Part shown: in pieces, positions 7,901 through 10,900 of the stretch
Position numbering within the stretch: position 1 is the stretch's first letter
Layout of the letters: every line of letters begins with the position of its first letter
Origin: Escherichia coli
GTDB taxonomy: Bacteria; Pseudomonadota; Gammaproteobacteria; Enterobacterales; Enterobacteriaceae
Direction: 5' to 3' (one strand)
Assembly (NCBI RefSeq): GCF_045037415.1
Contig: NZ_CP173438.1
DNA: 64,000 nucleotides
Position numbers: made by a program

Positions 7901-10900
7901 GGATCATAAGGAAACAGCGAAGTGATCACCATCGCCTGCCGTTGTGGATCATAAACTGAAGGCGTAGCGGACTGCGGCGGAGAAATAAATGTTGAAAATG
8001 GCACGTTCAACCCGGTGGCAATTTTCCATAATGTCGCGACCGTCGGGCTGGATTCATTACGCTCAATCTGCCCTAACATCGCTTTAGAAACGCCCGTCGC
8101 TTCTGCCAGTCGCGAAAGACTCCAGCCGCGCTGCTGACGTAGTTGTTTAAGTGTGGTGGATAAAAAACGAGCGAGATTTTCCATGCGACTCCTCCGGCAA
8201 AACGGAAGTTTATCACTTGTGCGTTATAACGGACAAATGCTACGGTACCTGTACGTTATAACGCACGAGGTGACTATGCGTCTGTTTTCTATTCCTCCAC
8301 CCACGCTACTGGCGGGGTTTCTGGCGGTATTAATTGGCTACGCCAGTTCAGCGGCAATAATCTGGCAAGCAGCGATTGTCGCCGGAGCCACCACTGCACA
8401 AATCTCTGGCTGGATGACGGCGCTGGGGCTGGCAATGGGCGTCAGTACGCTGACTCTGACATTATGGTATCGCGTACCTGTTCTCACCGCATGGTCAACG
8501 CCTGGCGCGGCTTTGTTGGTCACCGGATTGCAGGAACTAACACTTAACGAAGCCATCGGCGTTTTTATTGTCACCAACGCGTTAATAGTCCTCTGCGGCA
8601 TAACGGGACTCTTTGCTCGTCTGATGCGCATTATTCCGCACTCGCTTGCGGCGGCAATGCTTGCCGGGATTTTATTACGTTTTGGTTTACAGGCGTTTGC
8701 CAGTCTGGATGGTCAATTTACGTTGTGTGGCAGTATGTTGCTGGCATGGCTGGCAGCCAAGGCCGTTGCGCCGCGCTATGCGGTAATTGCCGCGATGATT
8801 ATTGGGATCGTCATCGTTACCGCGCAAGGTGACGTTGTTACAACTGATATTGTCTTTAAACCCGTTCTCCCCACTTATATTACCCCTGATTTTTCGTTTG
8901 CTCACAGTCTGAGCGTTGCACTCCCCCTTTTTCTGGTGACGATGGCATCGCAAAACGCACCGGGTATCGCAGCAATGAAAGCAGCCGGGTATTCGGCTCC
9001 TGTTTCGCCGTTGATTGTGTTTACTGGATTGCTGGCACTGTTTTTTTCCCCTTTCGGCGTTTATTCCGTCGGTATTGCGGCAATCACCGCGGCTATTTGC
9101 CAAAGCCCGGAAGCGCATCCGGATAAAGATCAACGTTGGCTGGCCGCTGCCGTTGCCGGCATTTTTTATTTGATCGCAGGTCTGTTTGGTAGTGCCATTA
9201 CCGGGATGATGGCTGCCCTGCCCGTAAGTTGGATCCAGATGCTGGCAGGTCTTGCGCTGTTGAGTACCATTGGCGGCAGTTTGTATCAGGCGCTGCATAA
9301 TGAGCGTGAGCGCGACGCGGCGGTGGTGGCATTTCTGGTAACGGCAAGTGGATTGACGCTGTTCGGGATTGGTTCTGCGTTTTGGGGATTAATTGCCGGA
9401 GGCGTTTGTTACGTGGTGTTGAATTTAATCGCTAACAGAAACCGATAATAAAAAGCGCCATCTAACGATGGCGCGTCTGGAACTACTTTTTGTTAACGTC
9501 AAACATGGTGGCATCGGTCGCCATGTCATCAATAACTTGTTTAATATTTTCGAAAGCCATTGGCGTACTTTCGTTATTCAGGTCTTTACCTTCGCCCTGA
9601 CGAACGACTTTGATAACCGGTTTATTAGTCGCTGCATCAATCAGCTCACCTTCAAAATACAAGCGAGTATCCATGGTACGGTGGCCTGTAGCCATTTGCG
9701 TCCCCGCAACCACTAATGCAACAGGAACCACTTCATAGAATTGCAGCCCTTCTTTGCTGGTATCTACACCGGTAATGGCCCCACGGAAAATCAGACTACG
9801 CGGCCCAGCGGTGGTAACCAGTGGTTTACGCTGCGCTATCGCTTCTTTCATTTCGGTGTTGGTATAGTTCAAAATTTTATCCAGAACTTTCTGCCCTACC
9901 TGGGTAGAAGGTTTCGGTACCGGATAATAAGTGATTGGGTTCCAGACGATGCTGTCATATTTGCTTTGATCAAAACTCGGGTCTACCCAACGTAAAACAG
10001 GTTTACCTGTTGCCGAGGTTGTTTCTTTTAAATCAGAGTAATTGTTTAAAAAACCAGAATATTTATCTGGCTGGGTGATTTTAGAGGCACAACCAGACAG
10101 AGCCAACAAGCCGCATAAAGCTGCAACTTTCGCAAATGATGTGGTACGCATGAATAGTTTCCTGAGATGATTATATTACTTTTTAAGTTATAGCAAAAAG
10201 CGCCGCTTCGTGTTGTGGCAAAAAAAGTGTTGGTGAAAATAAATTTTTTAGCCCCTTTTCAGACGACATAGTCAATGCCGAAAAAGGGGCTAAGTCAATC
10301 ATCAGTAGTTAAATTTCAGTACGTTAAGCGGCTAAAAAACTTCGACTACTGTGATTAATTTCACATCCCTTCGATAAAAAATATGCTTACCGAAAAGAAG
10401 AACAGTAAACCATCTCAGCGTGGGGAATTTTCACGCGCTTTGTTCTTACCGGATCATTTTTTACGTGCCAGCATCGTGGCGAAACGCAGTTTAATACGAT
10501 TACCGTTGGCGTCGGTGCGGTGCAGCTCGCCGACGTCTTCATTGTATTTCACCATCTCCCAGCCTTCGTAATATCGACGTAATTCCCCCTCTTTGAAGGC
10601 AAACGGGAAGCCGACGGTACATGGATAATCAGCGGTATCCATCGCCGCCACAATCAGGTTGTAACCGCCAGGTTTAGCGCAACGTTGCATATTGGCAATC
10701 AGCCCTGGGATGGTTTTAGCCTCAAGGAACATCAGCACCACAGTCGAAAGAATAAAATCGTACTGTCCATCAAATGTGAGGTTATTCAGATCAACGACCC
10801 GGGTGTGTAAATTATCCAGATTTTCAATGGACTTAATGCGCTCGACGTTGGCGATACTCATGGCATTTTTATCCCATGCGTCAACATCATAACCATTGGC

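Follow-up and report, generated by a model that had tools for sequence, protein, structure and literature searches.

In a 64,000-nucleotide (nt) stretch of the Escherichia coli chromosome (contig NZ_CP173438.1, assembly GCF_045037415.1; hereafter the window), a perfect 12-bp inverted repeat lies between tehB and ydcL. The genes of this locus are all on the minus strand, in the order tehA, tehB, spacer and ydcL, and the repeat is therefore downstream of the tehAB tellurite-resistance genes as well as upstream of ydcL. The spacer is about 302-305 nt long, and the RefSeq annotation holds no feature within it. The stretch belongs to the core chromosome: a 401-nt query around the repeat had a single match, between tehB and ydcL, in 5412 of 5426 complete E. 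coli genomes. Here we describe the repeat, the structure that it forms in RNA and the readings that can be given to it.

The inverted repeat in the tehB-ydcL spacer

A repeat finder delimited the arms as TTAGCCCCTTTT (10248-10259) and AAAAGGGGCTAA (10282-10293), separated by 22 nt. An earlier note on this DNA had reported a perfect 12-bp repeat with a 19-bp spacer at 10249-10292. An inverted repeat does exist there, but its arms and spacer were wrongly delimited. The left arm given in that note, TAGCCCCTTTTC (10249-10260), has the 12-nt reverse complement GAAAAGGGGCTA, and the right arm, 10280-10292, is the 13-nt sequence GAAAAAGGGGCTA; being of unequal length, these arms pair only via a bulged A. 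The note had placed the repeat in the intergenic region about 100 nt upstream of the ydcL start, and the gene coordinates agree, with a measured distance of 97 nt to the ATG.

Three places in the window have perfect inverted repeats of at least 12 bp with spacers of 3-40 nt, where a first-order Markov simulation gave a mean of 0.24 hits, with any hit in 14% of the simulated windows. The repeat exceeds the chance expectation, though that count alone does not settle its case. The frequency of the motif elsewhere had been proposed as a check, and within the window the exact 12-mer occurs only in the two arms. Across 5406 E. coli genomes, the surrounding 70-nt region was found at a median of one place per genome (maximum three). 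A dispersed repeat or mobile element, such as a repetitive extragenic palindromic (REP) sequence or a miniature inverted-repeat transposable element, was rejected because the region is single-copy. The repeat is also unrelated to IS609, which K-12 has on the other side of ydcL.

The perfect form is carried by a minority of E. coli genomes, since the 70-nt region was matched at at least 99% in 1662 of the 5406 genomes (~31%). Four of five other aligned E. coli strains, K-12 among them, carry GGGGCTGA, which puts T·G opposite the second arm position and retains 10 perfect bp plus the T·G. A long-range pairing of 10241-10257 with 10326-10342 was treated as chance, since most E. coli have a C-to-A change and a deletion that weaken it.

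RNA structure and conservation of the stem-loop

On the sense (minus) strand the repeat folds into a stem-loop with 13 pairs in the outer stem and 6 in the inner stem (Table 1). The objection that the repeat is too widely spaced for a terminator, raised in the earlier note, does not hold, because the 22-nt spacer pairs with itself. The sense-strand RNA has a folding energy of -25.3 kcal/mol, with z = -6.3 against shuffles, compared to -19.3 kcal/mol for the plus-strand RNA. For the K-12 allele the values are -25.4 kcal/mol on the sense strand and -16.7 kcal/mol on the opposite strand, a gap that arises because the T·G is a wobble pair on the sense strand only and a C·A mismatch on the plus strand. 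The hairpin is retained in the minimum-free-energy fold of the whole spacer.

The stem is followed on the sense strand by AAAAAAUUUAUUUUC, which is no terminator U-tract, and its upstream flank, GAUGAUUGAC, has no A-tract. That no T-run adjoins the repeat, as first described, is true of both strands, and the terminator scan did not flag the site; the view that this is not a typical intrinsic terminator was thus correct. A canonical intrinsic terminator was rejected on the same grounds: a stable G+C-containing stem is present, but the U-tract (about five or more U in 8 nt, 0-2 nt past the stem) is absent on both strands. A bidirectional terminator was also rejected, as the plus-strand T-run lies 5' of the hairpin and the minus-strand A-run 3' of it, the reverse of what is required. 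A 39-aa open reading frame spanning the hairpin (10302..10183, minus strand) does not keep its frame in relatives, as 1-nt indels interrupt it in O157, L008 and L010 (the last two being loci of the comparison below). In Rfam 15, searched to E = 10, the best overlapping hits had E = 0.43-5.2, far under the gathering scores.

Table 1. Genes, promoter elements and parts of the stem-loop at the tehB-ydcL locus (window coordinates)
Feature	Position	Strand	Remarks
tehA	12144..11044	-	
tehB	11047..10454	-	
tehB stop codon	10454..10456	-	hairpin starts 160 nt further downstream
Whole stem-loop	10248..10293	-	19 pairs, -25.3 kcal/mol; sense strand, 5'->3' from 10293 to 10248
Outer-stem 5' arm UUAGCCCCUUUUU	10281..10293	-	10282-10293 is the perfect 12-bp arm; U10281-G10260 wobble
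Inner stem	10264..10280	-	CGGCAU (10280-10275) / AUGUCG (10269-10264), one G·U
Apical loop UGACU	10274-10270	-	5 nt
Bulge UCU	10263-10261	-	3 nt
Outer-stem 3' arm GAAAAGGGGCUAA	10248..10260	-	
A6-T3-A-T4 tract AAAAAATTTATTTTC	10233..10247	-	directly 3' of the stem; first six bases without U
Conserved box TTTTTTTGCCACAAC	10212..10226	-	upstream of the -10 element; part of control region 10152-10247
Inferred ydcL promoter, extended -10 TGCTATAAC, then TTAA	10187..10195	-	sigma-S-like; box conserved across 80 Enterobacteriaceae loci
ydcL (DUF3313 lipoprotein)	10151..9483	-	

A genome scan with YdcL gave 80 Enterobacteriaceae loci, five of which (L006-L010) are from non-coli or divergent Escherichia. 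Conservation in relatives had likewise been proposed as a check, and among these loci the repeat itself was found only in Escherichia. Within the genus, the 9-bp core of the stem, GCCCCTTTT/AAAAGGGGC, hardly varies: L006, L008 and L009 have one change each, and two of these are U·G wobbles. Among the three outermost pairs, T-A, T·G and C-G all occur, with mismatches at position 3, and spacing and register vary as well: L008 has one extra loop base and L006 has shifted arms. The inner pairing is replaced in L007-L010 by an alternative UGAC/GUCA pairing. Fold stability is kept in all Escherichia species, at -16.7 to -26.3 kcal/mol, and pair counting found 91% of cells paired, with 2 pairs changed on both sides. 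Within the genus these data are compatible with the hairpin structure, of which the covariation is no proof.

Divergence of the hairpin from E. coli is 0.11-0.20 within Escherichia, against 0.24-0.40 at fourfold degenerate sites of tehB and ydcL in L007-L010; that of the tehB-proximal spacer is 0.19-0.32. By the fourfold-site measure, L006 (Escherichia sp. MOD1-EC7003) is the closest relative of E. coli, with values of 0.08 for tehB and 0.18 for ydcL. In this locus 127 nt of the tehB-proximal spacer have been cleanly deleted (2808-2860, compared to window 10294-10440); a predicted CRP site is lost with them, and the hairpin, which is spared, comes to lie ~45 nt from the tehB stop.

The 96 nt upstream of ydcL (10152-10247) are far more conserved, with a divergence of 0.02-0.05 across Escherichia compared to the same 0.24-0.40 at fourfold sites in L007-L010. 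All Enterobacteriaceae loci share a TTTTGCTATAAC box and a CATTTTTTGTCACAAC-like box upstream of ydcL, the former being an extended -10 element in a sigma-S-like context. This context fits the RpoS-holoenzyme peak that was reported for the tehB>ydcL spacer by systematic evolution of ligands by exponential enrichment (SELEX; PMC5493296). Transcription of ydcL is predicted from the position of the box to start near 10180, and the hairpin would then occupy about -113 to -68. The minus strand of 10152-10247 holds both TTTTGCTATAACTTAA (extended -10, sigma-S-like context) and TTTTTTTGCCACAAC, each conserved across Enterobacteriaceae. A second TATAAT is present in E. coli at 10175-10170; in Citrobacter and Enterobacter its place is taken by a TGCA-N4-TGCA palindrome.

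In other genera, different hairpins stand at the same position. The 3' end of the E. coli hairpin is 52 nt from the conserved TGCTATAAC box by hand count (53 nt by script), and this distance is 51-55 nt in four of the five other Escherichia loci; the 63 nt obtained for L006 reflects a mis-called hairpin. Since the automated single-hairpin scan of the 80 loci was noisy (regions were truncated), direct reading was relied on instead. Citrobacter and Salmonella have a hairpin of unrelated sequence ~30-40 nt after tehB, also without a T-run; the distance from its end to the box is 51 nt in Citrobacter L011 (hand count). Eight of the nine pairs of this hairpin changed on both sides, 91% of cells were paired and 0/500 shuffles reached its covariation score, while register-shift controls dropped to 20-49% paired. 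Many of its pairs are G·U on the sense strand. Yokenella has a canonical GC hairpin followed by TTATTTTT after tehB at the same position. In Enterobacter asburiae a different co-oriented gene, a 532-aa open reading frame, ends 8 nt before a canonical hairpin with CTTTTT, again at the same position. The comparison indicates that the hairpin is conserved by structure, its sequence being free to change. Structure is kept while sequence is not, and the hairpin of relatives is the terminator of the upstream gene; this argues for a transcript-end hairpin rather than a protein-binding palindrome.

The stem-loop and the 3' end of the tehAB transcript

We propose, with a probability of roughly 0.55, that the repeat is an RNA stem-loop marking the 3' end of the tehAB transcript, just upstream of the separately promoted ydcL. 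The earlier note had offered an RNA structural element as one option, and this option gains support from the better fold of the sense RNA and from the covariation of its positional counterpart. The note had not drawn on the shared orientation of tehB and ydcL, which puts the hairpin downstream of tehB, at the place where the terminator of the upstream gene is found in related genera. The stem-loop would form in minus-strand transcripts reading out of tehAB. Without a U-tract efficient intrinsic termination is unlikely, so the classical form of it is probably inefficient here. Polymerase would instead pass the hairpin, and Rho or weak hairpin-assisted termination would release it in the following 97 nt, which are untranslated and mildly richer in C than in G. 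The RNA could then be trimmed by 3'-to-5' exonucleases back to the base of the hairpin, which would stabilise the tehAB mRNA. Reduced read-through into the ydcL promoter, and with it some insulation of that promoter, would be a by-product.

We infer the parts played by Rho and the exonucleases from a described class of transcript ends. Dar & Sorek (2018; PMC6061677) found that the steady-state 3' ends of Rho-dependent E. coli transcripts lie shortly past stable stem-loops that guard the RNA against PNPase and RNase II. These stem-loops are not followed by U-rich sequence, have no upstream A-tract and show a mild excess of C over G downstream (PMC6061677). The tehB-distal hairpin is likewise stable and lacks both the U-rich tail and the upstream A-tract, and C:G is 9:1 in the first 40 nt after it; unlike in that class, the excess of C over G is confined to a short stretch that runs into the ydcL promoter region. 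Most likely, the tehAB hairpin is an ordinary, unannotated 3' stem-loop without a U-tract, of a known kind.

Two other kinds of element resemble it in part. The intrinsic terminators of Yokenella, Trabulsiella and Enterobacter are alike in their position relative to the ydcL -10 box and the upstream stop, and in stem energy; in contrast, the E. coli hairpin has a long bulged stem and is followed by six A and no U-tract. REP sequences and bacterial interspersed mosaic elements are also intergenic hairpins between co-oriented genes and possible exonuclease barriers, whereas the E. coli hairpin is not repeated, as the count per genome given above shows. To our knowledge it has no resemblance to the REP consensus.

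Several observations weigh against a 3'-end stem-loop. Covariation within Escherichia is not significant (62/500 shuffles do as well), and most stem pairs there are invariant. In L006 the divergence of the hairpin (0.109) is no lower than that of the fourfold sites of tehB (0.079). The Escherichia and Citrobacter hairpins share no sequence, and their equivalence rests on position alone. Terminators seldom have G·C pairs at the stem base and A·U pairs towards the loop, as the E. coli stem does. Over 60 nt, C:G is only 12-14:7-9 in Escherichia, and the C/G ratio is ~1.0-1.5 in most Citrobacter and Salmonella loci (up to 2.0 in L015); moreover, the C-over-G stretch overlaps the conserved ydcL promoter boxes and may be unrelated to Rho. 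Finally, a literature search, which covered supplements in part, found no mapped 3' end, transcription start or Rho-dependence data for the locus.

If the proposal is right, the hairpin shows where the tehAB unit is likely to end and how far upstream the ydcL control region reaches, and it adds a conserved U-tract-less 3' hairpin common to Escherichia, Citrobacter and Salmonella. Hairpins of this class are under-annotated because terminator predictors require a T-run. The case also counsels caution: gene orientation and cross-genus conservation should be checked before intergenic palindromes are called operators. Beyond annotation, its significance is small.

Alternative explanations and neighbouring features

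The hairpin could be a decaying relic, that is, a former intrinsic terminator of tehB that lost its U-tract, has little or no function and is kept by kinship among Escherichia. The non-significant covariation within the genus fits this explanation, as do the mismatches of the outer three pairs in several species and a hairpin divergence about half that of fourfold sites and similar to that of the rest of the spacer. A relic is nonetheless unlikely: Escherichia shares the U-tract-less state with Citrobacter and Salmonella, where compensatory changes maintain the pairing. In addition, the hairpin survives the 127-nt deletion in L006, and its fold stability is kept across Escherichia.

We consider it distinctly unlikely that the hairpin belongs to a structured ydcL leader, or to the 3' end of a small RNA of ~70 nt, made from a promoter in the Escherichia-specific segment of the spacer. 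A candidate for such a promoter would be served by CRP. The sequence TGTGATTAATTTCACA at 10350-10365 has a perfect CRP core, TGTGA-N6-TCACA, the only one in 64 kb (0.10 expected); in L007-L010 its half-sites stay the same while its 6-nt spacer varies, and its centre would be at -41.5 if CTTAAC (10328-10323) were the -10 element. Just 5' of the hairpin, CTGATGATTGACT is invariant in the Escherichia comparison, which also favours such a transcript. However, the candidate -10 hexamers are poor (3/6, without -11A or -7T) and unconserved, the promoter scan was empty on the minus strand in this region, and Rfam gave no significant match. The predicted CRP site lies 57 nt upstream of the hairpin in the ~127-nt segment that is absent from L006, Citrobacter and Salmonella, all of which have a hairpin. 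Class I or class II CRP geometry for the ydcL promoter was rejected, as the CRP centre is ~177 nt upstream of the predicted start. The CRP site is overlapped by a plus-strand promoter-like site, TTCACA-16 nt-TATGCT, with 9/12 matches.

The earlier note had also suggested a dimeric operator, and an operator for a dimeric or tetrameric factor, acting on the ydcL promoter from about -113 to -68, has little probability. Like palindromic operators, the inverted repeat is perfect over 12 bp in duplex DNA and precedes a promoter; its 9-bp core is nearly invariant in the five other Escherichia species, and it abuts the strongly conserved ydcL control region. Expression of ydcL is lowered in a rob deletion (PMC7537768) and raised in a cysB mutant (PMC6761508), and the gene is placed in an iron-related module (PMC10665441). 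Against this, the promoter boxes are conserved in the 80 loci while the repeat sequence is replaced outside Escherichia by unrelated hairpins, so that arm sequence is lost where the promoter is kept. The arm centres are 34 bp apart, the half-site spacing and register are not fixed (one base more in L008, shifted in L006), and most E. coli have a T·G mismatch in the DNA palindrome. There is no other perfect copy of the motif in the window, the region being single-copy in genomes. MarA, SoxS and Rob bind asymmetric sites as monomers, which counts against their use of such a palindrome. No convincing Marbox or Fur-box was seen by eye near the ydcL promoter. Among chromatin immunoprecipitation and SELEX data, we found no hit specific to the repeat, only the RpoS-holoenzyme peak somewhere in the spacer. 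Together, these results leave the operator option unsupported.

Slightly less probable again is that the hairpin is regulated and not a passive transcript end: it would act as a conditional barrier, with read-through coupling tehAB to ydcL, or form the end or leader of a CRP-dependent transcript starting in the Escherichia-specific segment that holds the CRP core at 10350-10365.

An antisense small RNA on the plus strand, of which the repeat would be part, is highly improbable: Ssr15 was predicted in Shigella flexneri in the SF1779/tehB spacer, reading against the genes on either side (PMC4782007), and a plus-strand promoter-like site (10360-10387) and terminator-like site (10418-10436) are present, yet Ssr15 is not among the candidates validated by reverse-transcription PCR in the table of PMC4782007, both sites are downstream of the repeat and leave it outside, and the plus-strand fold is weaker, with a C·A mismatch in the K-12 allele. 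Together, the promoter-like site and the plus-strand hairpin with its T-rich tail at 10418-10436 could yield a transcript of ~50 nt antisense to the 3' flank of tehB (10360-10445).

Downstream of ydcL, K-12 carries an IS609-type element between ydcL and ydcO. Comparison of window 9449-9482 with 144-1785 of locus L001 reveals such an element (insQ/tnpB and a tnpA pseudogene) that is absent in the source strain.

Two further perfect inverted repeats were noted in the window. One, of 13 bp, is GTGCGTTATAACG-N22-CGTTATAACGCAC at 8219-8266, in the divergent ydcN-ydcO control region, near the ydcO start or across it; the XRE/cupin regulator YdcN might bind it as an operator, or it might form a leader hairpin. 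The other, of 17 bp with a 7-nt loop (TAACTAATTCGCGTTGC...), is at 39582-39622 and is probably a terminator.

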